A stretch of DNA of 20,000 nucleotides from an uncultured virus (IMG/VR IMGVR_UViG_3300028840_007457) (IMGVR_UViG_3300028840_007457); one strand, 5' to 3'; counted from the first letter of the stretch, positions 1,215 through 17,172 are shown. Notes: a model not told the origin generated them from the sequence alone. Translations and numbers: made by a program.

Positions 1215-1475
1215 ATGCCTTACTTTAAAAACAACGTTGAAGTTTACAGTACCAAAGATCTGTTAGAAAATCTTGACGACGTAATGGAGAGTTTAGACTG
1301 GCATGTAGAAGCCCTTGCAGAGAATTTAAAATTAGGAAGAAAGAAGGCTATAGTTGATACTCTTGAAGGAATGAAATGGGAATTTTCAGAAGGTGTTAAA
1401 CACGTAGAAGACCTACTTAAAGCCATTGCCTCTGGTGGTGAGCTGGAAGTACCGTTACCTCGTAAAAAGTTCTAA
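1215..1475 (+). CDS. Hypothetical protein, acidic helical, basic C-terminal tail (PRKKF)
   Basis: SD AAAGGA at 1201-1206 before ATG; 86 aa; same strand and packing as neighbours. Confidence 0.8.
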   Translation: MPYFKNNVEVYSTKDLLENLDDVMESLDWHVEALAENLKLGRKKAIVDTLEGMKWEFSEGVKHVEDLLKAIASGGELEVPLPRKKF

Positions 1476-1479
1476 GCAA

Positions 1480-4400
1480 GTGTTTAACCGCTACGCTAAA
1501 AAAGACTGGGAACGCTTCAATTTAAAAAGAGAAGCTGAAGAGCTGAACCGTAAGTACTTTAATGGTGAACTCAGTTTAAGTTTCCATTTCAAGTACGGTC
1601 GGTTCTACCGCCAGTACGGTTTAGTAAAAGGAAGACGTAATCGTAACACTGGAGAAACCAAAGTTACGAGCCTGGAAATTAGCAACCGTTACGATTTAGA
1701 CAGAGAGACATTTCTTGGCATTTTAGGGCATGAATTAATACACGTTAAGTTCATGCAAAGTGGAGAAGATAGGTGGGAACGAGATCAACATGGTGCCCAC
1801 TTCCGTTCTGAAGTAAAAAGACTTCGCGGTCTTGGTTTAGATGTACCCCTTAGTGAAGACATTGGCAAACAAACCATGGATGCGGGTAAACCATTAAATA
1901 AAGCAGTAAATGTCATTATTAAAGATGGTACTTGGATTTTAGTTTGTCGCTCTTATGGTGCTCAAGAAGATTTAGACCGTTTTAACGGTCGCATGGAATA
2001 TACTTCATTTAGTAGAAAAACTCCTATTAAATTAGAATACTTTATTACTACCAATCCTATTGTACGCAGTGTACCAATTGCTAGAAATTTAAAAACCAGT
2101 AAGGGTCGCATGTACAAACTAGAGCCAGAGTGGTACTCTAGTTTACTTCCGGACAAAACCGGAGAACGGGTTTTTGAGCCCTCAGATTACAAAAGGTTGG
2201 GCAACATGAAAATTAGGAAAAGTGACTATGAGCCTACTTACACCGTAACTGTTACTTATACCCAATGGTCTGAAGACAAATACAGAGTTGAGCAAGAGGG
2301 GCAAAAAGACAAGCAGACTTTTTCCTCTTTTCCAGCTGCTGTTGACTTTGCCATAGCTTCCATGCCTCTAGTCACTGAGCCTAACGTCGGTTGGAGTAAG
2401 CCATATGAAACTCAAGTTGTTGACGATTCTTTAGTATTATTTGATAGCAGCTCTTCTAAAATGTTTATTACCACTGCACTTATTGAACGTAGTGATGGAG
2501 AATTTTTAAGTGAGGAAGAACTCTCCCACTTTGACTCTGCTGTCTACGACGCTGCTAGAGAAAGCGGAGTTAAGACTGATATTGTTCCTATTAAACCAAG
2601 AGACGAAATGACTAAGGAATTGGTAAAACGTTTCCAAGAAATAGAATATCCAACTGTTAAGTTTCAGCAAGTTGATTCAAACAAAATTGCTGTCAACGTA
2701 GGAACGGCTGTAGAAGGGTATCTTCTTAATGATGGTACAGGTTGGTTTTGGGATCCCAAAGATAGTAGCCTACGCAATGATAAACTAGAAAACGAAAGAT
2801 ATTCTGAACTAGATTTATTTAAAAATTGGGTAACCATCTTCCTCGAAGACACAATGAGTGTGGGGTCTAAAAACCCACTCTTGACAAAGGGTAAATCAAT
2901 GAGATACCGTAAACGCCAAGCTAACCTGGAAGAAATTAGAACCACAGCTGATCAAATTGCAGCTGATCTCAACGATTTTGATTTTAGAGGTGTTAGTCAC
3001 CTCAGTGGTCCTCAACCTGTAAGGGCTTATTTTGACGGTCCTCAGTACGGTACTTACCGTGTAGATTTTGCCTGGGATGACGGACGAGATCCCATCCCCC
3101 TTTTGAAACGCATTTTCAGCCAATTTCCTGGTAAAGTGACCACTCGTGGCGACTACGCTGTTTTTCTTCAAGGGCCTACTGTCAGTGTTTGGGCTGAAGA
3201 CGCTCTTAGTCATGAAAAGAACGCACCGTGGAGTACGTCGCGTCTTCCAGACCATGGTTCCTGGCACATTAGTGTAATGGATAACGACCGTGCTAGAAGG
3301 CTTTTTCCGGGAGTTTTTGCTGCAACGGCTAAAACTAGAAAACGTACAGCTAGGGGTGATCTAGAACAATTTAAGTCCATGTTAAAAGGGGTTTCAGTGG
3401 TAGACGGAGAAGGTTATCTTGATCCCGATTCTGAAACTGTCAACGTAGCCATTGTTCACGATGGTAGCGGATTTAATCCCGCTGCAGCTGTAGTAGTGGA
3501 CAGTTATGAAAGTGCTGAAAGTTGTATTCAGCAAGCTTTTGAAACTTTAGAAATGTGGAATTTTGAGCATTATAGAGAACACTATGATGAATTGGTAGAA
3601 GAGCATGGAGAAGAAGCAGGTAGCGAAATGTTTACCGAAACTTATAATGGCAATGCTTGGGATAATCTTCCCACTTTTGAGGTAGCTGAAGCTATAGCAT
3701 CAGACACCTTTGCCAGTAAACGCATTGATATTGATCCCGAGTTTGGCCTAAAATCTAAACCTCTCTACAAATTGCCTCCCACCACAGGTAAGACTAGAAT
3801 TAAACAGGCTGATTACTACTATGACTTAGCCGAGAAGATTTTAAACCACTACAATACAGAGTACAAACGTGGCTGGGCTTATTTTTTAGAAGCCATGGAC
3901 GACGTTGTTTACGGAGAAGCATTTAACAACCGTCTTCCTCGTGGTTTTGATATGATCATTGGTGTTGATTTAAAACGTAATCCAGGACCAGAGTTGGAAC
4001 AATTTATTTGGAACGTTAAACCGCGTATTATTGGTCGTGGAGACAAACACGAAACTACCGCTATTTTAACTGGGGAACTGAGAAAATTAGTGAAACAGTT
4101 TGAAGAAGGTAGGTTTGCTTCGGTGAGAAAAAGAAAAGCAGCTCCTTACCTTCGTCATGTTTTAAATGATCAGGATGTAGCTAGAGTTAAAGAAGACATA
4201 CACCTCTATAAATCTTATGGAAGAGATATTGCTGGTATTGAAGTTGGAAAACAATTTTACTATGATGGTGATATTTGGCAGTATTATGATGCCGATGCTG
4301 AAAGTGGTGCTCCTGAAGGTATTTTACTTGTTCTTTTTAATCCAGAAACCAATGAGATAGTGCAAGGTGTGCGTTTAGACGAGGTGGAACCTGTTGAGCA

Positions 4401-4518
4401 CAGTTACAGCGCTTCAAATCGTAAAGCTCGTTTAAATCGCTACGAAACTAAAACAATTCCCCCTGCAAAACTGAAAATTCCCGGCGTAGGCGTTTTTGCT
4501 CGTCGCCGTAGAAGCTAA
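1480..4518 (+). CDS. Multi-module polyprotein-like protein; N-terminal SprT-like HExxH zinc metalloprotease domain followed by about 6 unknown modules separated by basic [K/R]xA linkers
   Basis: LNRKYFNGEL...ILGHELIH (HELIH at 1729-1743)...HGAHF is the SprT-like pattern. Linkers at 2206, 2899, 3331, 3790, 4111 and 4408. Start placed at the in-frame GTG 1480 just after the upstream TAA, rather than the overlapping TTG 1426; start uncertain. Confidence 0.8.
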   Translation: MFNRYAKKDWERFNLKREAEELNRKYFNGELSLSFHFKYGRFYRQYGLVKGRRNRNTGETKVTSLEISNRYDLDRETFLGILGHELIHVKFMQSGEDRWERDQHGAHFRSEVKRLRGLGLDVPLSEDIGKQTMDAGKPLNKAVNVIIKDGTWILVCRSYGAQEDLDRFNGRMEYTSFSRKTPIKLEYFITTNPIVRSVPIARNLKTSKGRMYKLEPEWYSSLLPDKTGERVFEPSDYKRLGNMKIRKSDYEPTYTVTVTYTQWSEDKYRVEQEGQKDKQTFSSFPAAVDFAIASMPLVTEPNVGWSKPYETQVVDDSLVLFDSSSSKMFITTALIERSDGEFLSEEELSHFDSAVYDAARESGVKTDIVPIKPRDEMTKELVKRFQEIEYPTVKFQQVDSNKIAVNVGTAVEGYLLNDGTGWFWDPKDSSLRNDKLENERYSELDLFKNWVTIFLEDTMSVGSKNPLLTKGKSMRYRKRQANLEEIRTTADQIAADLNDFDFRGVSHLSGPQPVRAYFDGPQYGTYRVDFAWDDGRDPIPLLKRIFSQFPGKVTTRGDYAVFLQGPTVSVWAEDALSHEKNAPWSTSRLPDHGSWHISVMDNDRARRLFPGVFAATAKTRKRTARGDLEQFKSMLKGVSVVDGEGYLDPDSETVNVAIVHDGSGFNPAAAVVVDSYESAESCIQQAFETLEMWNFEHYREHYDELVEEHGEEAGSEMFTETYNGNAWDNLPTFEVAEAIASDTFASKRIDIDPEFGLKSKPLYKLPPTTGKTRIKQADYYYDLAEKILNHYNTEYKRGWAYFLEAMDDVVYGEAFNNRLPRGFDMIIGVDLKRNPGPELEQFIWNVKPRIIGRGDKHETTAILTGELRKLVKQFEEGRFASVRKRKAAPYLRHVLNDQDVARVKEDIHLYKSYGRDIAGIEVGKQFYYDGDIWQYYDADAESGAPEGILLVLFNPETNEIVQGVRLDEVEPVEHSYSASNRKARLNRYETKTIPPAKLKIPGVGVFARRRRS

Positions 4519-4548
4519 GAAACAAAAGTCAGAAAGGACTTCAATATC

Positions 4549-6153
4549 ATGGCACGAAAAACCAAAACCACTTTGAGAAAAGCAGCTGATAGCACCCAAC
4601 CTGGTAGCGTAAGTAGCAAATTGGAACGCCGCATGGGGCCAGATTTGACTTCACTATTCAACGCTGCTGGTACTAAGTTGTACAGCAATAGTGTGCTCAC
4701 CATTAAAGACGGTCTAAAAGAGATTTTCCAAACCGCTATTGACGATCTCACTGAAGAAATTGGTGACGAGTTAGGAAGAAGAGGTAAGGAAGAGGCAGCC
4801 AAACACTTTGGTGAGTTCATTAAAGAGGTTGTTCAGTCTGTCATGAAAGAGGGTATGGGAGAAATAAGTGATTCTTTAGAAGATTTAGCTAGCAGTGCTG
4901 CTGCTGAATTTATTCAAAGCACAGAAGAAGATTCTTCTGAAAGTGATGACGAACTCTTTGGTGTAGAAGAAGTGGAAGAGGTAGAAGAGGAGCCGGTAGC
5001 TGAACCAGAGGAGGAAGCACCTGCTGAAGGTGAGGAAGCTGCTCCTGCTGAAGGTGAGGGGGAAGTTGGTTTTGAAGACCTTATGGGAGAAGGGGAAGCA
5101 GGATTTAAAAAGGGTCCTCGTCGCTGGAAAAGCAAAAAACCAGTAAGGCTTAAGAAGGGTGAAGTGGCTAAAGAAGCCGAATTGGAAATTAAAGATCTGG
5201 TTAAAGTCACAGGTGGTGTGAGCAAGCTGAGGAGAAAAGGTATTAAAACAGCTCAGGCTGCTTTCCGTTACATGCAAAAAGCTCAAGTAGTTTTGGCTAA
5301 GAAACTGACCAAAGACTACGCTGTGGTTCAAGAAGTTTCTGCTGCTGATTTGGAAAAGTGGGCTAAACGATATTTTCCAGTTGCCAAAAAAGAAAGGAAA
5401 GGTACCCGTCGCCCTTTTGACCGAAAACGAAAAGCTGGTGATTTAGGTTCTGATTATTTTATTCCTGTCACTTCTACTCAATTAGATCCCGAAGTTATTT
5501 TGTGGTTCCATAGTGGACAGAGCGATCCAGTTTATGCTCTTGGTTCTAGATTAGTATCGCACCGGCCACAAGATCTTGGACGAACTAAAGCTTCTATTGA
5601 CGAATTGAATGCTTTAGAATCGACTTTGGAAAGATGGTTAGTAAGGTACACACAAGGGTTAGAAGACGATACATCCGATGAAGAATTAAATCGTATCGAA
5701 AAACTGCTCCGCAATACTAAAGCCATTATAGCGCAGCATGGTCGATATAAACCGAAACCTAGTTCCTTGCGTGGTAAAGAACAAGATGCTGCTTTTAAAG
5801 AATTCTTTGATGCTTACGTAGAAGGTTTGTTATTTGTTAGTACTGCTTATGGCGATGATGAAGGTGTTCCAATGGATTCTGTTTTCGGTTCCAATGATAT
5901 TGATAATGATTGTTATAGCCAGATGGAAGAAAACTGCGCCGAATTTTGGATTCATTTTGGTGATGCAATTATGGAAGCCGGAAGTCCTGCTGATGCAGGT
6001 CACGATTTTGCTATGACCGCCCAAGGTACGGGAGCTGGCTTCATGGATGGTGATTGGCCAGATCCATTAGACCGACAAATGTACGAAGCTAGTGAGGCTT
6101 TTGAAATGGATCTTTATGGACACTCTTCTGGTGAAGGGGGTGTAGCTTGTTAA
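4549..6153 (+). CDS. Multi-module protein: basic leader, helical domain with long acidic low-complexity tract, Lys-rich module, and C-terminal module with GHDF..T..G.GAGF.DGDW motif
   Basis: SD AAAGGA; leader MARKTKTTLRKA|A; E/D-rich tract ~4920-5100; linker KKERKGTRRPFDRKRKA|G (5386-5436). The C-terminal motif resembles, from memory, a widespread phage hypothetical family (GHDFWLTRNGHGAGFWD). Confidence 0.8.
   Translation: MARKTKTTLRKAADSTQPGSVSSKLERRMGPDLTSLFNAAGTKLYSNSVLTIKDGLKEIFQTAIDDLTEEIGDELGRRGKEEAAKHFGEFIKEVVQSVMKEGMGEISDSLEDLASSAAAEFIQSTEEDSSESDDELFGVEEVEEVEEEPVAEPEEEAPAEGEEAAPAEGEGEVGFEDLMGEGEAGFKKGPRRWKSKKPVRLKKGEVAKEAELEIKDLVKVTGGVSKLRRKGIKTAQAAFRYMQKAQVVLAKKLTKDYAVVQEVSAADLEKWAKRYFPVAKKERKGTRRPFDRKRKAGDLGSDYFIPVTSTQLDPEVILWFHSGQSDPVYALGSRLVSHRPQDLGRTKASIDELNALESTLERWLVRYTQGLEDDTSDEELNRIEKLLRNTKAIIAQHGRYKPKPSSLRGKEQDAAFKEFFDAYVEGLLFVSTAYGDDEGVPMDSVFGSNDIDNDCYSQMEENCAEFWIHFGDAIMEAGSPADAGHDFAMTAQGTGAGFMDGDWPDPLDRQMYEASEAFEMDLYGHSSGEGGVAC
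5020..5059 (+). repeat. Short in-frame direct repeat in the acidic tract (16-nt exact unit, 24-nt period)
   Basis: CCTGCTGAAGGTGAGG at 5020-5035 and 5044-5059, encoding PAEGE twice. Confidence 0.85.
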
Positions 6154-6194
6154 AGCGAAACAACGTAATATTAGCTGAGAGAAAAGGAACTGTC

Positions 6195-6413
6195 ATGCTA
6201 AGACGACATAGACGTAGAAGACGATTAGCTGCTGTTTCTCCCTTTGAAGCTAGTGCACAACTTCGTTACCTGTTTGATGAATTTTTAGATGAAGCTGGTG
6301 ACTGGTCTGAACCTCAAGCCACACAGCTAACTGAAGCCAGTGAAGCCTTTGGTGAGGTTTGGATGGACGCTGATGAAGACGGTAACGGTTCTGTTTGGTG
6401 TTCTCAGGGATAA
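6195..6413 (+). CDS. Small acidic protein with poly-Arg leader; partial paralog of the C-terminus of the upstream gene
   Basis: SD AAAGGA at 6183-6188 then ATG 6195 (preferred over TTG 6147). Leader MLRRHRRRRRLA|A. GDWSEPQATQLTEASEAF matches upstream GDWPDPLDRQMYEASEAF. Confidence 0.8.
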   Translation: MLRRHRRRRRLAAVSPFEASAQLRYLFDEFLDEAGDWSEPQATQLTEASEAFGEVWMDADEDGNGSVWCSQG

Positions 6414-6427
6414 AAGGAGGTAAAATC

Positions 6428-6751
6428 ATGTTAAGGCGAAGATTACACAAAAATACCTGTTTTAGAGGAGCAGCATCGGATGTTATTTTGAAAGCTTCTC
6501 CTACTCTTTTAGAAGTGTTCACTGAATTTACAGATCATCATGTGGATCTTAGTCATACCCAACTAGATGATTTTTTTTACAGACTTGATATGGAAGAATT
6601 GTTTCAAATTGTAGAAGAACTGACTCTTTCTGGTATTCCTGTCATTTGGCCAGAAAAACGGTCTGCCAAATCTCCTCTACGCAATATTTTAGTTTCAATG
6701 CTTACCACTAATCTATATAATACAACCTATTGGAATCGTTATTACAAATAA
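6428..6751 (+). CDS. Hypothetical protein with MLRRR leader
   Basis: Strong SD AAAGGAGG at 6413-6420, ATG 6428 (preferred over 6395). Leader MLRRRLHKNTCFRGA|A. Confidence 0.75.
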   Translation: MLRRRLHKNTCFRGAASDVILKASPTLLEVFTEFTDHHVDLSHTQLDDFFYRLDMEELFQIVEELTLSGIPVIWPEKRSAKSPLRNILVSMLTTNLYNTTYWNRYYK

Positions 6752-6767
6752 CAAAGGAGACAGTGCC

Positions 6768-7121
6768 ATGTTAAGACGAAGACGACGCAGAATGGCTGCT
6801 GAATATACATATGTTTACACTTATTTAGAAGTATTTACCTCGAAAGATAAATCTAAACCTTACGTATTTGAAATAGTAGCGATAAACTCAAGACAACTAC
6901 AAGAAGCAATTGACGATGCTATTGGCATAGCGGCAATTTTTAGTCATACAGATTTAGGCGATGAAGAAAACTTTAAGGTTAAGTGGTCTGGAGAACAACC
7001 AATAACGGATTTAAAACAACTACTACGTGATGTTGGAAGCAGAGAAGGGTTAATCCTTTCACAAAAAGAAATAGAAGACGAACTTGATAGTAAAGGTTGG
7101 GCGTACTTAGATATGCCATAA
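6768..7121 (+). CDS. Small acidic protein with poly-Arg leader; paralog of the module at 16603-16875
   Basis: SD AAAGGAG; leader MLRRRRRRMA|A; acidic body. Confidence 0.85.
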   Translation: MLRRRRRRMAAEYTYVYTYLEVFTSKDKSKPYVFEIVAINSRQLQEAIDDAIGIAAIFSHTDLGDEENFKVKWSGEQPITDLKQLLRDVGSREGLILSQKEIEDELDSKGWAYLDMP

Positions 7122-7148
7122 GAACCGACTTTTTAGGAGAATTTAGCA

Positions 7149-7418
7149 ATGCTAAAACGAAGACGCCGTAGAGTAGCAGCTACAAAAGCTCGTTTATCTG
7201 AAGGAACAACCTTTTGGGTTAAAGAAGATGAATTGGAAGACCCTTACAGTGTTGCAAGAGAGCTTCAAAGTGTGATCTGGTTTGATGAAAATTATTTTGG
7301 TGAAAATCAAGGCTACGGCTTAGAGGCAGAACCAACAGGTAGGAAAAACGATCTTCTTTATCACGGTAATTTAGTAACCATAACCGAGTATCGTTTGGTG
7401 GGTGTTTACGGAGACTAA
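7149..7418 (+). CDS. Small acidic protein with poly-Arg leader
   Basis: SD AGGAG; leader MLKRRRRRVA|A; acidic and aromatic body. Confidence 0.85.
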   Translation: MLKRRRRRVAATKARLSEGTTFWVKEDELEDPYSVARELQSVIWFDENYFGENQGYGLEAEPTGRKNDLLYHGNLVTITEYRLVGVYGD

Positions 7419-7420
7419 AA

Positions 7421-9250
7421 ATGCCGTGGGGTGATTTCAACTTTATTTCTCGTCCACATGTTAAAGTAGAACCACCTACTACCTACGAAACCAAAGCCTT
7501 GTTAGACAGCATTGACGATTTACTCGCCATTCAGTGTAGCCCCGGTACTTGGAACGTCAACCCCTACATGCATGGGCTGGCGAACGGGATGCATCTCATA
7601 CGCTCTATAATTAGTGGAGAAGAACCTGATTTTCTCTCTGCTCCAGACCGTTGGTTAGATGAACAGTATAATCGTCTTTCTGGTGGTGAACGCGGTGTTT
7701 TTGGTAGCGCTTTTGTAAGTTGCGTTGAAGAAGCCAGAAATAAACTAACTAAGAAATTAAAAGAAGACTACCCTCACGAAGACTATTACCTTATCAGTGA
7801 AGAGTTACCTCTAGACGAGTTAATTCCTACCGTCATGCTGAGGTACGGACCACAAGACAAAAAAGGTTTTTCCATGGACGACGATGTTATTTCCGTTTAC
7901 TGGGATGACGAAGCCTCCAGTTGGGTGGCACAATTAGAGGGTGACGTACCTCACCCTTTCCCAGCTGATCCCTACGACAACGAAGAACTAGTTAAAGAAA
8001 GCGCTTTAGCAGCCATGAAGGTAAGAAGACCTAACAGAGTAACAGACATCACCAGAGCACTCATTACTGGTAGACCACCTAAAATGCCAGTTACCAGTCA
8101 ACGAAAAGGAAACAAAATCATGGGACGCAAACGTAGAACTACAGTTGGTAAATTACACAAGGAACGTCGTGCAGACAGAGTAGCTCCTCTTGAATTTGAA
8201 GTAGGCGCTGTTTGCCTCTTTGATTTTCTGCGAATGGAACCAACTCAATTTGGGGTAACTAAAAACTTTCCTATAGATATGCTCCACGTAGCTGGTAAAT
8301 GGATCGCCAATACTGATTATGGTAACGACCCAACAGGAGATATTCAAAAAACTATTCCAAGACTAAACGACCTTGAAGCCGCAGAGTTATATACTATGTG
8401 TAGTAGTCGTAGTGAGTATGTTGTCAGGGAAAGTAAAGTTAGAACAGCAGCACTTAAACCAGCTGATAAAAGAGTGGTAAACGATTTTGTTGAAGGTGTT
8501 CCTAACGACGGTGGTAGAGTCGGAACCTTATGGACAGACGGCGAAAAACTAGAAAGTATGGGTTTGGGTGGTACAGTAATTGCTGTTAAAAAAGGTGACA
8601 ATATTTATGCCATAGACGGTTATAGTAGTCGTAGAGAAGAAAGCATAGTTAGGTATCTGAAAAAAATAACCCCACGTAGAAGATTTTACCAGGAGTTACC
8701 ATACGGTTACCCAGTGGTTAAAGACACAATTAGAACTTCTAGTTTAAGACGACGTAGAAAAGCCGCTTTTGACCCTTCACAAATAGAAGTAACAGAAGAC
8801 GAATATGGTACGCTTTACATCCTTCCCGGTGTTAATTTAACAGGTAACATAGAAAAAGATGTTGCTACAATGATGCAGGATGAAGAATTAGAATCTTGGT
8901 TGTATGGTGAACTAGGATCAGATGAATCCATTACCGATGTAAAAGGCGACGTAGTATACGGGGGAAGTGATGTTCAAGATTTCATAAGGTCTTACTTTCC
9001 TCACAGACCATCTATTGCTCGTAGTAGTAAACGACGTAGAAAATCTGATTTAACTTACAAACCTTCACGAAGCTACCTAGATGCTAGAGAGGATGCTAGT
9101 TTACATATTATGACCATTATGAAAAACTTGGTTAAAGAAGGTGTTAATTCTGGGGACATTGAAAATCCCGGACCCAATTTTATTTTTGAATTAACAGATA
9201 AAATTTGGGAATTAGTAAATAGTGTAGATGTGTACAAACGCGGACTGTAA
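7421..9250 (+). CDS. Multi-module polyprotein-like protein (about 6 unknown modules with basic linkers)
   Basis: 609-aa ORF; linkers at 8120 (internal SD+ATG, MGRKRR...KERRA|D), 8426 (RESKVRTA|A), 8732 (RTS|SLRRRRKA|A), 9020 (RSSKRRRKS|D). Includes the two-Cys module at 8192-8401. Confidence 0.8.
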   Translation: MPWGDFNFISRPHVKVEPPTTYETKALLDSIDDLLAIQCSPGTWNVNPYMHGLANGMHLIRSIISGEEPDFLSAPDRWLDEQYNRLSGGERGVFGSAFVSCVEEARNKLTKKLKEDYPHEDYYLISEELPLDELIPTVMLRYGPQDKKGFSMDDDVISVYWDDEASSWVAQLEGDVPHPFPADPYDNEELVKESALAAMKVRRPNRVTDITRALITGRPPKMPVTSQRKGNKIMGRKRRTTVGKLHKERRADRVAPLEFEVGAVCLFDFLRMEPTQFGVTKNFPIDMLHVAGKWIANTDYGNDPTGDIQKTIPRLNDLEAAELYTMCSSRSEYVVRESKVRTAALKPADKRVVNDFVEGVPNDGGRVGTLWTDGEKLESMGLGGTVIAVKKGDNIYAIDGYSSRREESIVRYLKKITPRRRFYQELPYGYPVVKDTIRTSSLRRRRKAAFDPSQIEVTEDEYGTLYILPGVNLTGNIEKDVATMMQDEELESWLYGELGSDESITDVKGDVVYGGSDVQDFIRSYFPHRPSIARSSKRRRKSDLTYKPSRSYLDAREDASLHIMTIMKNLVKEGVNSGDIENPGPNFIFELTDKIWELVNSVDVYKRGL

Positions 9251-9284
9251 GAAAACAACCTCTTTAAGAGAGAGAGACTTAAAA

Positions 9285-9566
9285 ATGTTAAGAAGAAGCA
9301 GAAGACGACATTTAGCCCTCAGTGATAGAGAATTCGCCTTTCGTCACATTAGACAACTTGCCAAACTCATTGAAAGAGACGCAAAAGACATTGCAGAGTT
9401 TGTATACCAGGCTCGACTTAGACCAGATCTTTTAACAGATAATGAAGCCGAGACCTTAGAAGAGTGGTTGGAAGATGCTGCTGCAAAATTAAAAACTGCT
9501 ATTAACGAACAACGGTTTAGACAACGGGGTGGTTCGGTTAGACGACGCAGACGTTTTAGAAGGTAA
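9285..9566 (+). CDS. Small helical protein with Arg-rich leader and Arg-rich tail
   Basis: ATG 9285 after a purine-rich GAGAGAGAG tract (preferred over 9228). MLRRSRRRHLA|L at the start and GGSVRRRRRFRR at the end. Confidence 0.8.
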   Translation: MLRRSRRRHLALSDREFAFRHIRQLAKLIERDAKDIAEFVYQARLRPDLLTDNEAETLEEWLEDAAAKLKTAINEQRFRQRGGSVRRRRRFRR

Positions 9567-9571
9567 AACAC

Positions 9572-10132
9572 GTGCTCCTTCACTTCACCACAAAAGACTT
9601 CAGAAAGCTGTTTCCCACTCTCTTAAGGTTGTGGCCTGAAACAGGTACCAAGTGGTCTAGAAAAAATGCTGCTGCTCTCCTCTCTTTAATTAAGGAGAAA
9701 GGCAAAGAGAAAACAGCAGCTGCTGACAGTTCCACAATTGTGGTTTCCACCTCCATAAGTAAAGAACAGCTTTTAGAGCATGGTAGAAGGGTAGTAGCTA
9801 TCTCATATTCAACACCGTTCCGGTTCCGGAGGCTCGACGCTCCCGCAAAAACTTTAAATAGTAAAGCGATTAAAGTTCGCCCTGGTAGTGATTTGTCTAT
9901 TGCTATTGAGGGAAACCCCACCACAGCTAGAATAGAAACTATTAGACGGATAAGGTTTAGAGGAAAACCAAATTATGTCAAGGCTGGTTTAATAATTAAC
10001 ACTGAAAATATTCCTTTTTACCTGCAACGGGAAACTAAGTGTGATTGTCGCTATTGTGGAAATCCAGCGCCTCGGGATTCAGAAATCACCAGTTGTCCTA
10101 GCTGTGGAGCTGTCCTCCCTAGCTGCGTTTAA
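9572..10132 (+). CDS. Hypothetical basic protein with C-terminal zinc ribbon
   Basis: GTG start after AAGGT; C-terminal CRYC-x12-CPSC; internal KEKTA|AA. Confidence 0.7.
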   Translation: MLLHFTTKDFRKLFPTLLRLWPETGTKWSRKNAAALLSLIKEKGKEKTAAADSSTIVVSTSISKEQLLEHGRRVVAISYSTPFRFRRLDAPAKTLNSKAIKVRPGSDLSIAIEGNPTTARIETIRRIRFRGKPNYVKAGLIINTENIPFYLQRETKCDCRYCGNPAPRDSEITSCPSCGAVLPSCV

Positions 10133-10137
10133 TTAAA

Positions 10138-10434
10138 ATGGAAAGCAAAACATTCCTAAATATTAAAGACCACTTTTTCGAGCGTTTGCAAGAAGAGAAC
10201 GCCAGTGGTCTAGATGAAGTTGAAGGCAGACTACTTTTCCACGACGTCGTTTTCCATTTTTGGTGGGCTGATAATCAGCTCACCTTAGAACTGGCAGTTT
10301 TACCTGCCACTTTTAGTGGTGATGAAGAAAGAGCTTGGGACCTTGTCGAAGATTTCATTAAAAGTAACGGCGGTCAAACCCACAACACCAAAGACACAAC
10401 CAAAACTGATTTATCAATTGCCCAAAAAAGTTAA
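10138..10434 (+). CDS. Hypothetical protein
   Basis: 98-aa ORF tightly packed between neighbours; no basic leader. Confidence 0.7.
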   Translation: MESKTFLNIKDHFFERLQEENASGLDEVEGRLLFHDVVFHFWWADNQLTLELAVLPATFSGDEERAWDLVEDFIKSNGGQTHNTKDTTKTDLSIAQKS

Positions 10435-10449
10435 AACAAAACCTTCATC

Positions 10450-12468
10450 ATGAAAAAAGCTTACACTGGTCCTGTTTATCCGTTTACTCCTCGGGTAACC
10501 TGGTATCCTAACTCTAATTCTGTTGTGGATTGTCAAGGTGCGGAAATTTACATTGAACAGCTTATGTACCGTTACCCTTATCGTGAAGATTTAGATAAGC
10601 TTCACAGTTTAATTCGACAACAAAACGGTGTAAATGACGGTGTCTGTGTAGAGTTAGCCAGGAAAGCTGAAAACATGATTTTAAAACAAGCGCAAACAAA
10701 CCCCACAACTCTAAGAGAAGTGCTGGAACAAGTAATAGATCCTTCTTATACAGTTGAAGACCAAACAGGCTTAGATTGGAATGCTGAAGACCTGTTAACT
10801 GAATTGTCAGAAGAAGAATTGAGCGCAACAGTTTACTGGGATGGTTTACCTAAACCAGCTTTAAATAGAGACGGTGACTATCCTGAAGTGTCTAAAATAT
10901 GGTTAGTAAATAGTGCTGGTCACGTACTTGAACCCGACCTTTTTGAAATTTATTTGGAAATTGACCGCATAGATCCTTTTAATTCCGGTAGTAATTTCAA
11001 AACTCATAAAGGGAATTTTAATACAATGGGTCGTCGTAGAGTAGCAACTGAAATTAAAGGAATACATTGGTTCTCTGGAGAAAAACCTCTTATTAAAGAG
11101 TTGGAGCGGTGGGGAGATCCAGAAGAGGTTAAAACCGGGAAAGTGTACTGGCACCGTAGACGCCAACAATACTTATTAGTTCCTGGTAATCCTAGCAAAG
11201 CTGAAGTGGCTGGTGGATTGGCTAAAAAAGATAAGTACGGTGATGATGTACCAAAAGATAAAGCTAAACAGAAAAAAGAGTTGGAATTTATAAGTGTCTC
11301 TGAGTTAAAGAAGTGGGCTAAGCAGTATGGTGTTAAAGATTGGTACGTGGATAACGTTTACGGTAAAAGGGTTTACCGAAAAGAATACGACAAAAAGGAA
11401 ACAACTGCTTTAACTAAAAGCGAAAAGGGCAAAATTATGATTAGTAGGAAAAAAGACCGTAAGGGTAACTTTAGACGAAGACGACGTAGACTTGCTGGTA
11501 GAGGTGATGCTTTTCTTCGTTACACCGATGAATTTGGTTCTGAAGTGCAACTTGAAATTGATGACGAATTAATTGGTGTATTTAATAACCAGGATGAAGC
11601 TATTGAGTTCATAAAAGAATGGGCCAATGAGAATCATTATTACCCTACTCTTTACTTCAAAGATATTGATGCCACACTTGAAGAAATTGACTATAGATAT
11701 GCATCTACAGCTTCACAAATGATTAATTGGAAAAGAGATCCTCACGTAGCTCGCATAATTGAACGCGGAGCTGAGCTGGGGCATGAAGTTGATACTATTG
11801 TCAAAGCAGTAGTAGAACACCTTGGTGATACCACCCTTCACTACAATAAAAAAGAAAGTGACGCCATTTGGAGTGTAGTCAAAGACTACGTCTCCGAATA
11901 TGATGCTGAACGAGAAGCTTACGCAAAGCGTATTGCTAGAAAACGTCACAGAAAAGCTGATTCATTTTCAGATTATTCAGAATTTGATGTGCCATTGTCT
12001 TGTCTTTATGATTTTTATGATCGTAGACTGTCTAATATTGAAGAAGATATGTGGGTTTTAATTTACAAAGACAATTCAGGGTGGCACGCAGAAAATGAAA
12101 GCGGTGACGAATTTAATGATTTAGCCCCCAAAAACGACACCGAAGCAAACCGTTTAGCTTTTTATTGCAGTAACATGAATTTAGTATCAGCTACGTTTTC
12201 CCAAAGCCATCATCGTCATCGCACTTCTTGTTGTGGTCGTGGTCGTCCTCATAGAACGGGTAGAAAGTGGGAAAGTTTACCTGAGGGGTGGGACAAAGAT
12301 AGTTTAGAGAGCTACTGGAATAGTATGGGTGGTAGCGTTAGTTCTTGTGTTGAAGAACTACAAGGTGATCCAGAGATTACAGATCCGGGGGCATTCTGTG
12401 CTAGTTTGGCAGATCGTGTAGAGGGTAAAAAATGGCGTCATAGACCACGTAAACACCGCAGAAAATAG
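10450..12468 (+). CDS. Multi-module polyprotein-like protein (about 7 unknown modules with basic linkers)
   Basis: MKKA|Y start; internal SD+ATG tags at 11026 (MGRRRVA|T) and 11437 (MISRKK...RRRRRRLA|G); RYA|S at 11695; KRIA|RKRHRKA|D at 11926; two-Cys module 11980-12168; C-terminal CV...DPGAFCASL module and basic tail RHRPRKHRRK. Confidence 0.8.
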   Translation: MKKAYTGPVYPFTPRVTWYPNSNSVVDCQGAEIYIEQLMYRYPYREDLDKLHSLIRQQNGVNDGVCVELARKAENMILKQAQTNPTTLREVLEQVIDPSYTVEDQTGLDWNAEDLLTELSEEELSATVYWDGLPKPALNRDGDYPEVSKIWLVNSAGHVLEPDLFEIYLEIDRIDPFNSGSNFKTHKGNFNTMGRRRVATEIKGIHWFSGEKPLIKELERWGDPEEVKTGKVYWHRRRQQYLLVPGNPSKAEVAGGLAKKDKYGDDVPKDKAKQKKELEFISVSELKKWAKQYGVKDWYVDNVYGKRVYRKEYDKKETTALTKSEKGKIMISRKKDRKGNFRRRRRRLAGRGDAFLRYTDEFGSEVQLEIDDELIGVFNNQDEAIEFIKEWANENHYYPTLYFKDIDATLEEIDYRYASTASQMINWKRDPHVARIIERGAELGHEVDTIVKAVVEHLGDTTLHYNKKESDAIWSVVKDYVSEYDAEREAYAKRIARKRHRKADSFSDYSEFDVPLSCLYDFYDRRLSNIEEDMWVLIYKDNSGWHAENESGDEFNDLAPKNDTEANRLAFYCSNMNLVSATFSQSHHRHRTSCCGRGRPHRTGRKWESLPEGWDKDSLESYWNSMGGSVSSCVEELQGDPEITDPGAFCASLADRVEGKKWRHRPRKHRRK

Positions 12469-12482
12469 AAAGGTTAAAAATC

Positions 12483-12737
12483 ATGACAGCAGAAGTAACC
12501 AAGGTAGTAGATTTAGAAGAAGCTCAAATGGTAGCTTTAGAAGCTGTGTGTACTAAATACAGTATTGATTTAGAAACGGAAAACGGATTTGAAACTAGAA
12601 TGTTTAATGGGGTTCCATCTATTAATATTAAAAAAACTGGTGACACCCAAATTACATTTACCATGTTAAACGTACCTGATACCGTAGATGCCCAAAAAGC
12701 TTTTCGTCTGGTTCAAGCCGCTTTTCCCTCAGCATAG
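12483..12737 (+). CDS. Hypothetical protein
   Basis: SD AAAGGT; 84 aa; no basic leader. Confidence 0.75.
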   Translation: MTAEVTKVVDLEEAQMVALEAVCTKYSIDLETENGFETRMFNGVPSINIKKTGDTQITFTMLNVPDTVDAQKAFRLVQAAFPSA

Positions 12738-12753
12738 GAAGGATTAAAGATTC

Positions 12754-14229
12754 ATGTCTATCAATATAGCAGTTCGGGATTTTTTACCATTTTTAGAAAA
12801 TCCCTCTCATTTTTTCGAGCTTGGTAAAGTTTGCCGAGCTGCAATTGCTTCTCCTAAAAAATTATCCCCTGCTTTTAAAGCTTTAGTAAATAAAAGACTT
12901 GCTTATTTTATTGTTCAAGCAGCTATTAACCCCTCTAAAATAGAAGAATTCAAAAAGCACAAAGGGAAAAATCTATTTGGAGAAACAGTAACAGACCTTT
13001 TAAAAAGCTTCATGAAAGGTCAGGAAGCTGGGGCTCAAAAAGAATATGTAGATCAAGCAGTAAAAGCTGGATCCAAACTCCTCATGGGCTCTTTTGATTT
13101 TGTCTACAATGCTGCTGTTGAAGTTGTAGATAAATGGATAAGCGTTACTACCGGAGAATCTACAGAAGAGATTTTAGATAGAACCCACGCTTATGATATT
13201 ATTGACCGTATTGCTTATTTTACTGCTCTTAAAGGTGTGCTAGAAAGTGTAGATCCTGATACGTGGGGAAGTCAGAAAACTACCGTTGAAAGAAAATTGG
13301 GTAAGGTAACTGGTGCTCTGGCTAAATCTATTTGGGAACATGGTTTAAGCAAGAAAAGTAAAAAGAAGCTTAAAAAAGTAGATCCCACAGACGAAGCTAG
13401 TAAACTAAAAGCAGAGCTATTCAAAACAGCAGGTACAGCTGCTAAGCAGACAACCTCCAAAGTACTTAAAGAGCTAGAAAAATTTGCCGCCCAAGTTTTG
13501 CAGTACAGTGCTGAAGAAGATGAGCAAGCAGAACAGAAAGCAGCCAGTGTTAAGAGGAGAGCAGAGTTTTACGACAACGATCCTCAAGTAGAGGAGGCCG
13601 TAGTTGAGGCCATTACTCCCTTTATAGAAAACAAATTAAACCAGTATGAAGATTGGTTTGTTGACAGTGAAGCGGGAGAATATCTCTGGAGTCAGTTTGA
13701 TCAACTTGTAGAAAATTGGATTTACGAAATTGCTCAAGTTGTAACATGGGCTGAAACAAGTGGAACAGGAGACGTTAGTTCTTTAGATTATTATGACTAT
13801 TCCAGAGAAATTTCTGGTATACTTTTTAAATTAACGCCCGGATCTGAAAACGAAGAAAATATTTACAACTATCTTAAAGATATTGAAAATGCAGTTTTAG
13901 GGCCAGCTTTTGAAGCTGCTGCTCAAGCGGTAGAAGAAAACAAAAAGTACGAACCTTTGGTAGCGAACAGGAGAAAAGCAATGTTGAGACGACGTAGAAG
14001 AAAAGTTGCTGTACGATATGAGTATGAAGATGTCGAAGATGACATTCGTAGTATAGTTGGTGGTCTTACTCCTATTTTAGATAGACTCCCTGTACTTTTG
14101 CGCATGGCCTACGGCAATAGTAAAAAATTTGAGGGTCCTCAATTAGAGGAGCTTTTAACCATGTTTAGAGAAGCGGACGAAAAAATAGAAGATGCTGTAG
14201 AAGTTTTAAAAATGCTTGCTACCCTATGA
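12754..14229 (+). CDS. Three-module protein: Lys-rich helical N-domain, acidic middle module, C-terminal MLRRRRRKVA module with its own SD
   Basis: SD GGAAGGA; linkers KAA|SVKRRA|E (13537) and RRKA|MLRRRRRKVA|V (13969-14010). Confidence 0.8.
   Translation: MSINIAVRDFLPFLENPSHFFELGKVCRAAIASPKKLSPAFKALVNKRLAYFIVQAAINPSKIEEFKKHKGKNLFGETVTDLLKSFMKGQEAGAQKEYVDQAVKAGSKLLMGSFDFVYNAAVEVVDKWISVTTGESTEEILDRTHAYDIIDRIAYFTALKGVLESVDPDTWGSQKTTVERKLGKVTGALAKSIWEHGLSKKSKKKLKKVDPTDEASKLKAELFKTAGTAAKQTTSKVLKELEKFAAQVLQYSAEEDEQAEQKAASVKRRAEFYDNDPQVEEAVVEAITPFIENKLNQYEDWFVDSEAGEYLWSQFDQLVENWIYEIAQVVTWAETSGTGDVSSLDYYDYSREISGILFKLTPGSENEENIYNYLKDIENAVLGPAFEAAAQAVEENKKYEPLVANRRKAMLRRRRRKVAVRYEYEDVEDDIRSIVGGLTPILDRLPVLLRMAYGNSKKFEGPQLEELLTMFREADEKIEDAVEVLKMLATL
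13969..13983 (+). promoter_or_regulatory. Internal in-frame ribosome-binding site and start codon (AGGAG-N7-ATG)
   Basis: AGGAGAAAAGCAATGTTGAGACGACGT lies inside ORF 12754-14229 and has the same architecture as the starts of stand-alone genes 6768 and 7149. Confidence 0.65.
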
Positions 14230-14479
14230 GTCTATTTTGTTAATTAGTAAAGTTACACCAGAGCTTTTGGCTTCTCTTTGTTTGTGGAATGAAAAAGGTT
14301 TACCTATTACAGACTATCTTATTTGTTTTGATACACTTCAAATGTTGGCTTACGTCATGGAAGAAAATGGAAGTGAACGGAGAGTTCAAATTACCAAATT
14401 TCTCTTTCTTGGAGATAAAAGCCTAGAGTTGTTTCTTCCTGATAGTTTGAGAGACTACAGAGTGGAAAATTTGGAGTAA
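14216..14479 (+). CDS. Hypothetical protein, tandem paralog of 14487-14723 (start uncertain)
   Basis: Shares F[DN]T...NGxExRVx[IV]xxFxFxG...LExxLPxxL with the next gene. TTG start is uncertain (14216 or 14237). Confidence 0.7.
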   Translation: MLPYESILLISKVTPELLASLCLWNEKGLPITDYLICFDTLQMLAYVMEENGSERRVQITKFLFLGDKSLELFLPDSLRDYRVENLE

Positions 14480-14486
14480 GTTAATT

Positions 14487-14723
14487 ATGATAATTGATAA
14501 CAATAACATTAGACTAAAGAAAACTCTTCGTGTGTTAGATAAAAATGGAGAGAGGGTTGAAAATATTGTTTGGTTTAATACTGAAACCCTGGTAGGTAGT
14601 ACAGTTAAAAATGGTAAAGAACAAAGGGTAGAAGTAAGCCAGTTTTGTTTTGTAGGTAACCCCATGGATTTAGAACACCTGCTTCCTCCAGAGTTGTATA
14701 TGCACATTGTTCCTAGTTATTAA
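14487..14723 (+). CDS. Hypothetical protein, tandem paralog of 14216-14479
   Basis: GGAG upstream; aligned motifs as for the previous gene. Confidence 0.75.
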   Translation: MIIDNNNIRLKKTLRVLDKNGERVENIVWFNTETLVGSTVKNGKEQRVEVSQFCFVGNPMDLEHLLPPELYMHIVPSY

Positions 14724-14735
14724 AAGGAATTAAGC

Positions 14736-15569
14736 ATGAGACCAAAAAGAAAAGCATACACAAGAGTAGTTAAACCAGGAGAAATAGGTACGCAAACCTT
14801 CTCTCCCAGTCCGGATTTAAAAAAGCTGGTAGACGATTATCTTAAAAAGGTGCAAAAAGAAGTTGATAGTGGTAAAGATGCCAACACAGCTTTCAAAACA
14901 AAACCATCTTTAGATGACCTAACAGGTAATGAATTAATCGAACTTCTTTTCTACAACGAAAAACTAGGTACTGCTCCTATTAAGGAGTTGAACTATCTTG
15001 ACCTTTTTAGCATTCTTCAAAGTCTGTTAGAGCAAAAAGTGTGGCAATTGGCTGTTCAGTGGTGGGGCGAGCAAGAAACAAAATTGAAAAAGGATACCAC
15101 AGAAACAGTGGTAGAAAGGCCAAAGGCTGCAAGCATGCTAAGGAGACGCCATAGGTTTGCTGTTTTAAATCCTTCCGATGTAGAGCTAAAAGGTATAGAA
15201 TTTGCAAGTGGCCAAGAACCAGAAGACAATGACTTCATATCTCTTGTTACTGTTAGATTCGCAGTAAGTGGACAAAGTTTGGCTAGTTTAGCTGGTAAAC
15301 AAAGACGAGTGCTTTTCCGTTATCTAAGCAATGCTTCAAAACACCAATTACTTTCTGCTGTGGTGAACAGTAGAGAACTACTGCAAACACTTAAACCTAA
15401 AATCAAACGATTTGTGAATGAGTATTTTGTTTATGACCTTGATATGGATCCACCTCGTCGTCTAAACATGGAGTGGGCAGAAGAAAGTGACTATCCCTAC
15501 AGTGCTGAAGTACACGCAGCAGATGAAACAGTTATTTTTGAAGTTGAACTAGACGTCATGGGAGGATAA
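14736..15569 (+). CDS. Two-module protein with basic leader and internal MLRRRHRFA tag
   Basis: SD AAAGGA; MRPKRKA|Y; internal KAA|SMLRRRHRFA|V (15123-15164) with ATG at 15135 preceded by AAAGG. Confidence 0.8.
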   Translation: MRPKRKAYTRVVKPGEIGTQTFSPSPDLKKLVDDYLKKVQKEVDSGKDANTAFKTKPSLDDLTGNELIELLFYNEKLGTAPIKELNYLDLFSILQSLLEQKVWQLAVQWWGEQETKLKKDTTETVVERPKAASMLRRRHRFAVLNPSDVELKGIEFASGQEPEDNDFISLVTVRFAVSGQSLASLAGKQRRVLFRYLSNASKHQLLSAVVNSRELLQTLKPKIKRFVNEYFVYDLDMDPPRRLNMEWAEESDYPYSAEVHAADETVIFEVELDVMGG

Positions 15570-15570
15570 A

Positions 15571-16026
15571 ATGAAAATCAAAGTAGGTAGCAAAACTTAC
15601 ATTAAAAAGACTGCCCAGAGTGTAGTCTACGATGATCGTTTTTTCCGTTGGGACGGAATTCTTTTTCATGTGTTTGCTTTGCTCCGCAGCAAAACAGGAG
15701 AAAACCTTCCTGGCCGAGAAGCTGGATTTACAAAAACTATTAAACAAATTCCCAAAGAAATAAAAGGTGATATTGACCCTGAAAAATTGGTAAAGGCTGA
15801 GGAAGCTGCTGCAGCTGGAGAGCTGTGGTACATTAAAATAGGAAGCAAAAAAGAGGGTTTGGGTTGGCTTTGGTCTAGAGACGGATCACAACCTTACCCT
15901 TCTGGAGCTAACAAAGTAATGGCCATTCACGAGGTTTTGACTTTTCTACAACGTTTTAGGTCCAGTAACAAAAGTAGCGGAGCTGAAGCCTACTACATTG
16001 AAATAACAAATAATTCACAAGGCTAA
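15571..16026 (+). CDS. Hypothetical protein with Lys-rich leader ending KKTA
   Basis: SD GGAGGA; MKIKVGSKTYIKKTA|Q. Confidence 0.8.
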   Translation: MKIKVGSKTYIKKTAQSVVYDDRFFRWDGILFHVFALLRSKTGENLPGREAGFTKTIKQIPKEIKGDIDPEKLVKAEEAAAAGELWYIKIGSKKEGLGWLWSRDGSQPYPSGANKVMAIHEVLTFLQRFRSSNKSSGAEAYYIEITNNSQG

Positions 16027-16031
16027 AACAA

Positions 16032-16286
16032 ATGAGAAAACGAAGACAAGCACTAGGACCAAATATAGCTGACGTTGTAGAGAACTTATTTAACAATTTA
16101 GGATTCAGGCAAGGACTATCTATTTTGCTGGCTCAAATAATGGACACTCCAAGCGCTCAAGATAAATACTATGCACTACTAGCCAAGTTTGGTATTACAG
16201 AAAATGATTTATCTAAAAACGATGACGATTATCTCTATGATGAGGTAGTAAGGCGTGTAACAAACACTAGACATTGGATAGACTAA
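16032..16286 (+). CDS. Small protein with basic leader
   Basis: MRKRRQA|L; AAGG upstream; tightly packed. Confidence 0.8.
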   Translation: MRKRRQALGPNIADVVENLFNNLGFRQGLSILLAQIMDTPSAQDKYYALLAKFGITENDLSKNDDDYLYDEVVRRVTNTRHWID

Positions 16287-16320
16287 CATGGCTATCGCAA
16301 TTGAAGGGACAATCAGGAAA

Positions 16321-17172
16321 ATGAAAAATCGCAGGCACTTAGCAAGCCAACGCCGAGAAGCCCAGCTGCAACAGCTGCTACAGCAGTTTGAAACTGCAAG
16401 CGGCAAAATCGTTAAAACGCTCACAGATGCTTACAAAGCAACCATGGGTAAGCAGTTCGATCAGAGCAACAAAATCCTCCATAAACTAGACGGAGTTGTT
16501 GAAGACAAAATTCTAGATTCGTTTTTAGAATTGAATGATACCATGGCTGGTGTTGTAGGATTAGAAGCCACAGCTAGTGTAAGGCGACGTAAAAAAGTAG
16601 CCATTACTTCTGAAGATGAAGTAGCTTATATTTGGGTAAACTACTTAGAAGAACCTACTCAGCTTTATATTACTCCTTTGGAACATCATTCTAAAGACCG
16701 TGTACTGGATGAATTGGCAGAAGTAGTTCAAGAAGATTGGGGTACAGATTTAGAGTACCATGCTGGTTTCGGTGAAGAAGGAGTTAAATCACTTTCCCAG
16801 CTCCTAAAAGGAAAACCTCTTCAAGAAGCTCTAAGACAGTTAGAGTACGCTGACATTGCAGTAATTGACACACCGGTTCCAGCTAATAGATTAAAGGTTT
16901 CTGCTCAAGAACCACGTTGGCACGATGTTGGTAGAGCAGATGCACCAGTAGCTACCATAGATATTTACCAAACAGGATTCTATGACGATCCCGAAAGTGA
17001 AGAAGGCGGTGGACTACCCGACTTTTTCGAATACAAAGCCTACCTGAGTGAAATGGAAGGTAAACCTTACGATGGAGCCTACGGTGTTGCTGACTATACA
17101 GAAGGAAATAGTGCTACTGAAGCTGTGAAGAAAATGATTGACCAGTGGAGCAGAGCTGGATTTTTAGAATAG
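16321..17172 (+). CDS. Three-module protein with basic leader and linkers
   Basis: MKNRRHLA|S (ATG 16321; alternative start 16288); linkers A|SVRRRKKVA|I (16573-16602) and RLKVSA|Q (16888). The middle module is paralogous to gene 6768. Confidence 0.75.
   Translation: MKNRRHLASQRREAQLQQLLQQFETASGKIVKTLTDAYKATMGKQFDQSNKILHKLDGVVEDKILDSFLELNDTMAGVVGLEATASVRRRKKVAITSEDEVAYIWVNYLEEPTQLYITPLEHHSKDRVLDELAEVVQEDWGTDLEYHAGFGEEGVKSLSQLLKGKPLQEALRQLEYADIAVIDTPVPANRLKVSAQEPRWHDVGRADAPVATIDIYQTGFYDDPESEEGGGLPDFFEYKAYLSEMEGKPYDGAYGVADYTEGNSATEAVKKMIDQWSRAGFLE

Follow-up and report, generated by a model that had tools for sequence, protein, structure and literature searches.

How did several long open reading frames (ORFs) of a phage head module come to contain, internally and in frame, sequences that look like the start of another gene? 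The question is raised by a stretch of 20,000 nucleotides (nt), hereafter the window, of the uncultured virus IMGVR_UViG_3300028840_007457, in which seven in-frame ATG codons are preceded by a Shine-Dalgarno (SD)-like sequence and followed by a short arginine-rich peptide, hereafter the tag. The window is a 20-kb part of a single metagenome contig of 221,679 bp (39% G+C), from which it differs by one base, and the locus represents the head module of a jumbo phage of 222 kb that is known from metagenome only. We think it probable that the seven sites are gene-start cassettes at the fusion or fission seams of mosaic head-protein ORFs. Such a cassette would combine an SD of the AAAGGA type usual in the phage, a spacer of 7-11 nt, an ATG and an Arg-rich tag of the N-terminal type, placed in frame at a seam.

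Internal start-like sites and N-terminally tagged genes

Every plausible gene of the window lies on the + strand, as do the ORFs and sites of the window described here. Six small genes, starting at 6195, 6428, 6768, 7149, 9285 and 16032, begin with ML(R/K)RRRR-x-A-A or a similar sequence, and the same Arg-rich motif is found internally in seven long ORFs of the window; this short peptide is common to otherwise unrelated proteins of the head module. Four of the small genes form a stand-alone group at 6195-7418, where each starts with ML(R/K)RRR and has its own SD, and they provide the reference form of the cassette. The other two stand-alone tagged genes are located at 9285-9566 (MLRRSRRR) and 16032-16286 (MRKRRQ).

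The sequence-only reading of the window had listed seven internal ATGs with an SD-like sequence, several of them leaving a Lys-Gly signature in the translation. The quoted SD-like sequence is indeed found 7-11 nt 5' of each of the seven in-frame ATGs, and also 5' of the two stand-alone starts used for comparison, 6195 (SD AAAAGGA) and 6428 (SD AAAAGGAGG). The signatures TKGKSM, RKGNKIM, HKGNFNTM and EKGKIM occur in the translation, as do RKGTVM ahead of 6195 and KGGKIM ahead of 6428 in the untranslated sequence.

Pairing was scored over positions -20 to -3 with CACCUCCUUU, an assumed anti-SD sequence that may not be that of the host, which gave the energies (in kcal/mol) listed here with each site. 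Two sites lie in a mosaic ORF of 1030 amino acids (aa) with an SprT-like N-terminal part (1426-4518). The one at 2191-2208 consists of AAAAGG (2191-2196), a 9-nt spacer and ATG 2206, which heads the weak tag MKIRK (-6.4); at 2886-2901, AAAGGG (2886-2891) and a 7-nt spacer precede ATG 2899 and the tag MRYRKRQ (-4.7). The 609-aa mosaic ORF at 7421-9250, with tags at 8126, 8747 and 9029, contains the site at 8104-8122: AAAAGGA (8104-8110), a 9-nt spacer and ATG 8120, followed by MGRKRR (-5.8). Two further sites separate modules of the 672-aa mosaic ORF at 10450-12468, which comprises modules A, B and C together with an inserted module and a C-terminal domain of wide occurrence. At the A-B seam lie AAAGGGA (11008-11014), an 11-nt spacer and ATG 11026 with the tag MGRRRVATE (11008-11028, -5.5), and at the B-C seam AAAAGGG (11423-11429), a 7-nt spacer and ATG 11437 with the tag MISRKKDRKGNFRRRRRR (11423-11439, -4.6). 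In the 491-aa ORF at 12754-14229 the site at 13969-13983 (AGGAG at 13969-13973, a 7-nt spacer, ATG 13981, MLRRRRRK; -7.4) is placed such that the last 82 aa follow the tag. The 277-aa ORF at 14736-15569, finally, has an N-terminal tag (MRPKRK) as well as the internal site at 15115-15137, where AAAGG is present twice (the nearer copy at 15122-15126) and ATG 15135 follows after an 8-nt spacer and heads MLRRRHR (-5.0).

An eighth candidate cassette, absent from the earlier list, was identified in the 1030-aa ORF. There, AAGAAGGTAGG precedes an in-frame GTG at 4123 and the tag RKRKAA (from 4126; 4103-4137), and with -9.6 it is the strongest SD-like sequence among the internal tags. Other internal tags are Met-less and have neither start codon nor SD, such as SSL-RRRRK-AA at 8747-8761; further start-less tags are found at 5422, 9029, 11473, 11938 and 16582. 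A repeat (SDY..SDY) around the 2206 cassette was considered as a recent duplication and dropped, as the codons differ.

Start-like character of the sites

The genome-wide background was taken from a crude choice of 287 ORFs, 272 of which start with ATG, and comprised 844 other internal in-frame ATGs. These internal ATGs have a median pairing energy of -1.8, with 17.8% at or below -4.5, and the 272 first ATGs have a median of -4.4, with 50% at or below -4.5. The sequence-only reading had made its case depend on the listed sites having a stronger SD than other internal Met codons. This they have (Mann-Whitney p=2.7e-4), and in SD strength they do not differ from the first ATGs (p=0.40). A 4-mer of the SD core is found within positions -18 to -5 at all seven sites, at 94 of the 844 internal ATGs and at 139 of the 272 first ATGs. 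Of the 62 internal ATGs in these long ORFs, 16 have an energy of -4.5 or below, including all seven listed sites (7/7 against 9/55 of the others; Fisher p=2.3e-5). The sequence AAAAGGA is also present before genes 331, 1215, 6195 and 14736, so that the SD type of the sites matches that of the phage's own genes.

Because the list of sites was drawn up post hoc, we also applied a fixed rule: a Met followed by at least four R/K, at least two of them R, within the next seven residues. Genome-wide, 13 internal Met codons comply, seven of which have an energy at or below -4.5. In the tag-rich head region this holds for six of nine, with a binomial P of 0.0016 relative to all internal ATGs and 0.021 relative to a background of basic coding context in which 29% of positions reach -4.5. 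Sites 2206 and 11026 fall outside the rule with three basic residues each.

The start-less tags provide a second comparison. For the seven Met-less internal tags of the window the upstream energy (best of two offsets) is 0.0 at 8747, 0.4 at 9029, -2.7 at 11938, -4.0 at both 11473 and 16582, -5.3 at 5422 and -9.6 at the GTG-headed tag 4123. Tags headed by a start codon differ from start-less ones with p=0.004, or p=0.037 when GTG 4123 is counted among the Met-less tags. Start-less tags are thus mostly without SD, which indicates that SD and ATG travel together. Predicted folding of the mRNA from -30 to +30 points in the same direction: the mean is -6.1 at the seven sites, -6.6 at the six N-terminally tagged genes and -6.8 at first ATGs. 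Folding is stronger at the 844 internal ATGs (mean -9.3, p=0.012) and at tags without Met (mean -9.1, p=0.013), comparisons of modest power with n=7.

Synonymous-codon resampling, covering seven codons upstream of each site, showed that the SD is built on the rare Arg codon AGG at 2206 (P=0.06), at 13981 (P=0.034) and, together with AAG, at 15135 (P=0.048). Of all Arg codons in the genome 9.2% are AGG, and in tags the count is 8 of 99. When summed over all seven sites, the resampling yields P=0.003. Taken together, the sites bear three features of initiation regions that other tags of similar make-up lack; the sample is small (n=7).

Gene boundaries and modules in relatives

Comparative evidence takes in five sites (8120, 11026, 11437, 13981 and 15135); for 2206 and 2899 the searches found no relatives. 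Close relatives were compared as predicted proteins, with gene starts as predicted. For ORF 10450-12468 a search without length limits gave 415 matches at E<=1e-3, mostly to the C-terminal domain alone. Two of the relatives, P0011 (341 aa) and P0012 (227 aa), start with MLRRRK..., and this start aligns with the internal Met 193 of the window's ORF (MGRRRVATE, site 11026); in BLASTP, aa 193-312 of the ORF match aa 2-118 of P0011 with an E-value of 6e-13. Module B occurs alone in P0032 (130 aa), the C-terminal end of which falls on the 11437 seam, and is joined to other sequence, with no tag, in P0013. The start of P0010 (251 aa, MIRRRRRR...) matches an internal seam of P0008 that is the counterpart of 11437. 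All four relatives with a tag at 11437 (P0008, P0009, P0011 and P0012) have the Met there.

In these predicted proteins the gene boundaries of relatives coincide with 11026 and 11437. The sequence-only reading, which would have lost its footing had relatives never been split at the junctions, is in this respect upheld by P0011 and P0012 for 11026 and by P0032 and P0010 for 11437. At 8120, 13981 and 15135 the predicted proteins of the relatives found are fused, with no split seen. Since the modules are independently started in relatives, the internal combination of SD, ATG and tag would represent the start region of modules that are, or were, separate genes.

At the 8120 seam the Met is kept in both relatives. 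P0004 (447 aa) reads RKM-KRRRRTTTVG, and P0005 (790 aa) reads KIM-RRN, after which come an additional module and a second copy of the tag (KKRRRRRTTTAGRLHKE); both are fused. The modules that follow or lie between the tags of ORF 7421-9250 differ among P0004, P0005 and P0006. Across P0004-P0006, P0008-P0013 and P0018, modules are present, absent or moved. The long ORFs would accordingly be read as strings of modules parted by Arg-rich tags, with modules gained, lost and exchanged at the tags, and the same modules would appear elsewhere as separately started genes with an N-terminal tag, fused in another order, or fused without Met.

The AlphaFold2 model of ORF 10450-12468 has a mean predicted local distance difference test score (pLDDT) of 64.6 and a predicted template modelling score (pTM) of 0.28, in view of which only the local pLDDT pattern was used. 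Values below 50 are found at aa 171-201, 307-352, 499-509 and 581-615, which are the tag and seam regions, and the modules between the low-scoring seams (aa 171-201 and 307-352) have block means of 70-93. In this model the seams of the ORF lie between modules that are predicted to fold independently.

Some further properties of the modules of this ORF were noted. The extra module of about 85 aa (aa ~505-590, window 11950-12225) lies within a tag, flanked by RKRHRK and HHRHR. P0008 and P0010 lack this module; it recurs in P0005 and in P0116, in the latter twice as judged by eye. The C-terminal domain of about 70 aa (aa ~600-672, window 12247-12465; WExLPEGW...SxWNSxGGSV...DPGAFCASL...WRHRPRKRRRK) is very widespread, occurring at varied positions in proteins whose length ranges from 75 to over 1100 aa, and has no match in Pfam or PHROGs. 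The ParB-like ORF at the window end (19464-20000 and beyond) includes a module A paralog at window 20433-20768, with 37% identity over 112 aa, and P0018 contains the same fusion of module A with a ParB-like sequence.

More distant relatives are represented by four IMG/VR contigs (L001-L004), in which an RRR-x-A-[AVS] motif adjoins a protease that is about 50% identical to the one encoded at 331-1182 (see below); ORF 1426-4518 has a match in none of these four. A tblastn search of phages with P0002 and ORF 1426-4518 gave no matches, scans of viral contigs with ORF 12754-14229 and two alignments gave no relatives, and scans of metagenome contigs returned the window's own contig as sole match. 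Two DNA sequencing runs carry the stretch as an identical contig and may be the source of it (no RNA run is listed). In these two runs we observed no base substitutions and no split or fused variants of the ORFs, apart from which there was one low-depth 2-base insertion at 18148. A low-depth joint from 12492 to 16424 (35 foreign letters, 21 letters on the shorter side) was taken to be from another organism. An assembly artefact joining separate genes was rejected, since the ORFs of relatives are equally long (491 vs 491 aa; 277 vs 278 aa).

Alternative explanations

Several observations weigh against an origin of the sites as the starts of once separate genes, and three other explanations were considered. 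The ORFs may always have been single genes in which an SD and ATG arose before pre-existing tags, the shorter tagged product being useful. Internal in-frame starts of scaffold proteins within protease genes are an accepted feature of phages (PMC4378225), and the closest relatives at 13981 and 15135 fit such newly evolved starts: they are fused, of the same length and Met-less, where the window has ML and an SD built on a rare AGG. Thus P0002 (46% identity, 491 vs 491 aa) reads RRRKPIAF-KRRRRLAV at the position of the window's NRRKAML-RRRRRKVAV, and P0157 (72% identity, 278 aa) reads PKAAGF-RRFARL at 15135; the distant P0158 (32% identity, 278 aa) is fused as well and has the Met (KDM-RLAGRD). 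Judged from these alignments, the ATGs at 13981 and 15135 may be new rather than fossil. Most internal tags in the distant L001-L004 are Met-less too, and a tag without Met may accordingly be the more ancient form. The 11026 seam of P0009 is fused and Met-less (ESRKGSKVKQRKTATELKG), and P0008 is devoid of the 11-residue cassette KGNFNTMGRRR. Junctions 11026 and 11437, however, coincide with predicted gene boundaries in relatives, and we consider it unlikely that newly evolved starts account for the sites.

It is quite unlikely, in our estimate, that the pattern is merely a by-product of protein composition, in which the Lys, Gly and Arg codons of linkers (AAR, GGN, AGR) mimic an SD and Met-Leu is a favoured hydrophobic pair before an Arg run, with no tie to starts past or present. 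Several observations agree with such a source. Lys-Gly alone accounts for four of the seven SDs, those at 2899, 8120, 11026 and 11437, which the resampling attributes to the amino acids (P 0.31-0.66). Among 551 non-Met control positions before basic stretches the mean energy is -3.05 and 29% are at or below -4.5, so that basic coding context alone raises SD-likeness. In the head region the rule also picks up Met codons with a weak or no SD, at window 8015 (MKVRRPNR, -0.4), 21960 (-1.6) and 34537 (-3.8). P0009 has a Met-less RKGSKV-KQRK at the 11026 seam, and in P0002 the second basic run, RRRRK, is aligned to the RRK that encodes the SD at 13981 in the window. Composition fails, however, to account for start-less tags that are mostly without SD and have normal mRNA structure, for a Lys-Gly dipeptide within positions -7 to -2 at four of the seven sites as opposed to 25 of the 844 internal Met codons, for rare AGG codons forming the SD at three sites, and for relatives' gene boundaries on the seams. 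The SD-like sequences might also act as pause sites, where anti-SD pairing slows ribosomes at module boundaries for the sake of folding and the ATG is incidental. They are indeed located in predicted linkers between modules, but each has an ATG at a start-like spacing of 7-11 nt, and the tagged boundaries 8747, 9029 and 11938 have no SD-like sequence. SD-induced ribosome pausing is itself disputed, and we regard this explanation as highly improbable.

Origin and present-day use of the cassettes

If the seven sites are gene-start cassettes, the history indicated by the gene boundaries at 11026 and 11437 would presumably apply to the other five sites as well, and the direction of change would be fusion rather than fission. 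The proposal of the sequence-only reading that polyproteins grew from formerly separate tagged genes thereby stands in part: the shuffling of modules and the boundaries at 11026 and 11437 are in line with it, and the fused, Met-less relatives at 13981 and 15135 are not. As to how the genes were joined, loss of a stop codon between adjacent genes and recombination at the tag-coding repeats would fit the insertion of modules in tags equally well, as far as the alignments of the relatives go.

We lean slightly away from the view that translation is still initiated at some of the cassettes, yielding shorter nested products. Sites 8120 and 11437 would be the likeliest to do so, because the Met is conserved there. 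Hints for such use are a Met kept at 8120 and 11437 amid variable neighbours, an SD visible at the codon level at three sites and an open mRNA; the closest relatives at 13981 and 15135, fused and Met-less, argue against it.

A wider reading, which we regard as rather doubtful, is that the head-cargo locus is a combinatorial cassette system. Modules would keep their ribosome-binding site, start codon and poly-Arg tag even when fused, the polyproteins would be cut by the prohead protease, and internal initiation would dose additional nested products of single modules. The near-identical DNA of the tags could then serve as recombination seams for swaps between cargo genes and between phages.

The head module

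The gene at 331-1182 encodes a head maturation (prohead) protease of the T4 gp21 / jumbo-phage type (phrog_18299, E 2.3e-38). In tblastn it is 28-39% identical to annotated prohead proteases of Dickeya, Erwinia, Vibrio and Pseudomonas jumbo phages, and a megablast of the entire window against the phage collection gave no matches at the DNA level. Across the genome, the Arg-rich tags are concentrated between about 12 kb ahead of the window and 15 kb past it (window -12,000 to +35,000). Several tags are found in a 623-aa ORF that immediately precedes the window, and one of them, Met-headed and with the same Lys-Gly signature (GKGKRTM-SLRKRRTRRSRLA, SD energy -5.7), lies about 1270 bases before the window start (position 44979 of the reverse-complement genome).

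The tag presumably acts as a capsid-targeting or processing peptide, by analogy with the capsid targeting sequence (CTS) of T4. A Glu is found 4-12 residues past many tags, and several are followed by x-x-E (MAAE, VATE, AITSE, VRYE), which is only suggestive of a propeptide cleavage motif. The sequence-only reading proposed RRKA, encoded at 13969 by the SD itself, as a candidate cut site, and a putative separation of the fused products by the protease. Twin-arginine translocation (Tat) signal peptides were considered for the tags and dropped, as the Arg run has no hydrophobic stretch after it.

The N-terminal part of the 1030-aa ORF (window 1426-2200) contains an HExxH motif (GHELIHV), and a Pfam SprT-like match to this ORF remains below the cut-off (E 6.3e-5, 23.2 bits vs 25.6). 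This part may add to the head module another protease, one that depends on a metal.

The small genes 6768-7121 and 7149-7418 share a reading frame and are parted by only nine codons, two of them stops; by its sequence, the pair resembles a seam that is still unfused. Residues 30-69 of the small gene at 6195 (window 6282-6401) resemble the C-terminal end of ORF 4549-6153 (6040-6150) with 45% identity over 40 aa (E 7.6e-4), a likeness that suggests tandem duplication of a module.

ORF 4549-6153 also has a strongly acidic stretch (EEDSSESDDELFGVEEVEEVEEEPVAEPEEEAPAEGEE...) at window 4900-5100, and in L001 an acidic ORF (8034-9551) is located upstream of the protease. One may speculate that such acidic stretches serve the basic tags as a scaffold partner. 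The protein encoded at window 9572-10132 has four Cys in a C-terminal motif (CxC..C...CPSCG) and is conserved in the distant relative L001 (14595-15017).

Relation to known systems

In phage lambda, C/Nu3 is an example of an in-frame nested head gene. For the protease/scaffold genes of Mu and PaMx73, an in-frame start with an SD 8-9 nt upstream has been described (PMC4378225). The sites described here resemble Mu I/Z and lambda C/Nu3 in that a start codon with its own SD stands in frame within a longer head-assembly ORF, from which two products are possible. They differ in number and context: seven or eight candidate starts are spread over five ORFs, each heading an Arg-rich tag, and these ORFs are cargo-like mosaics and not the protease gene itself.

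The CTS of T4 is a short peptide common to diverse packaged proteins (PMC3012670). As in T4, unrelated head proteins of the window have one short N-terminal peptide in common, near a gp21-type protease. Unlike the T4 CTS, to which it bears no resemblance, the tag is poly-Arg (MLRRRRR-x-AA) and is found at internal positions as well, with up to five copies in one ORF; its role in targeting or cleavage is putative and is proposed by analogy. SPN3US has N-terminal propeptides with several cleavage motifs that are cut at AXE by a gp21-like protease (PMC10052503). With SPN3US and phiKZ, whose head proteins are processed by the prohead protease (gp245, motif AXE), the window shares a jumbo-phage head with many packaged proteins and a gp21-like protease, and several of its tags are followed by x-x-E. 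Arg-rich tags and internal start signals go unmentioned for SPN3US in the part available (PMC10052503), and the protease of the window has only the 28-39% identity to jumbo-phage proteases given above.

A full-text literature search, in which not all journals were covered, returned no description of such Arg-rich tags in phage head proteins.

Fusion and fission of genes, shuffling of modules and a general mosaicism are common among phage structural genes. The same modules are here fused, split and reordered among relatives, in keeping with this mosaicism; unlike the anonymous junctions of that general case, the seams carry a recognisable, repeated cassette of SD, ATG and tag. Three features of this locus are new: the tag is poly-Arg, it is used repeatedly at internal positions, and seven or eight start-like cassettes are arrayed along the module seams.

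If the seams are real, they form a readable record of how the head-cargo proteins of giant phages are built, with small modules, each tagged on its own, that tolerate fusion, splitting and exchange and would still be delivered to the capsid. If some of the cassettes are active, several products would be made per ORF and per message, which would add a further level of dosage control to head assembly. A poly-Arg tag with its own start signal would also be, like the CTS of T4, a compact and portable unit for loading foreign proteins into capsids.

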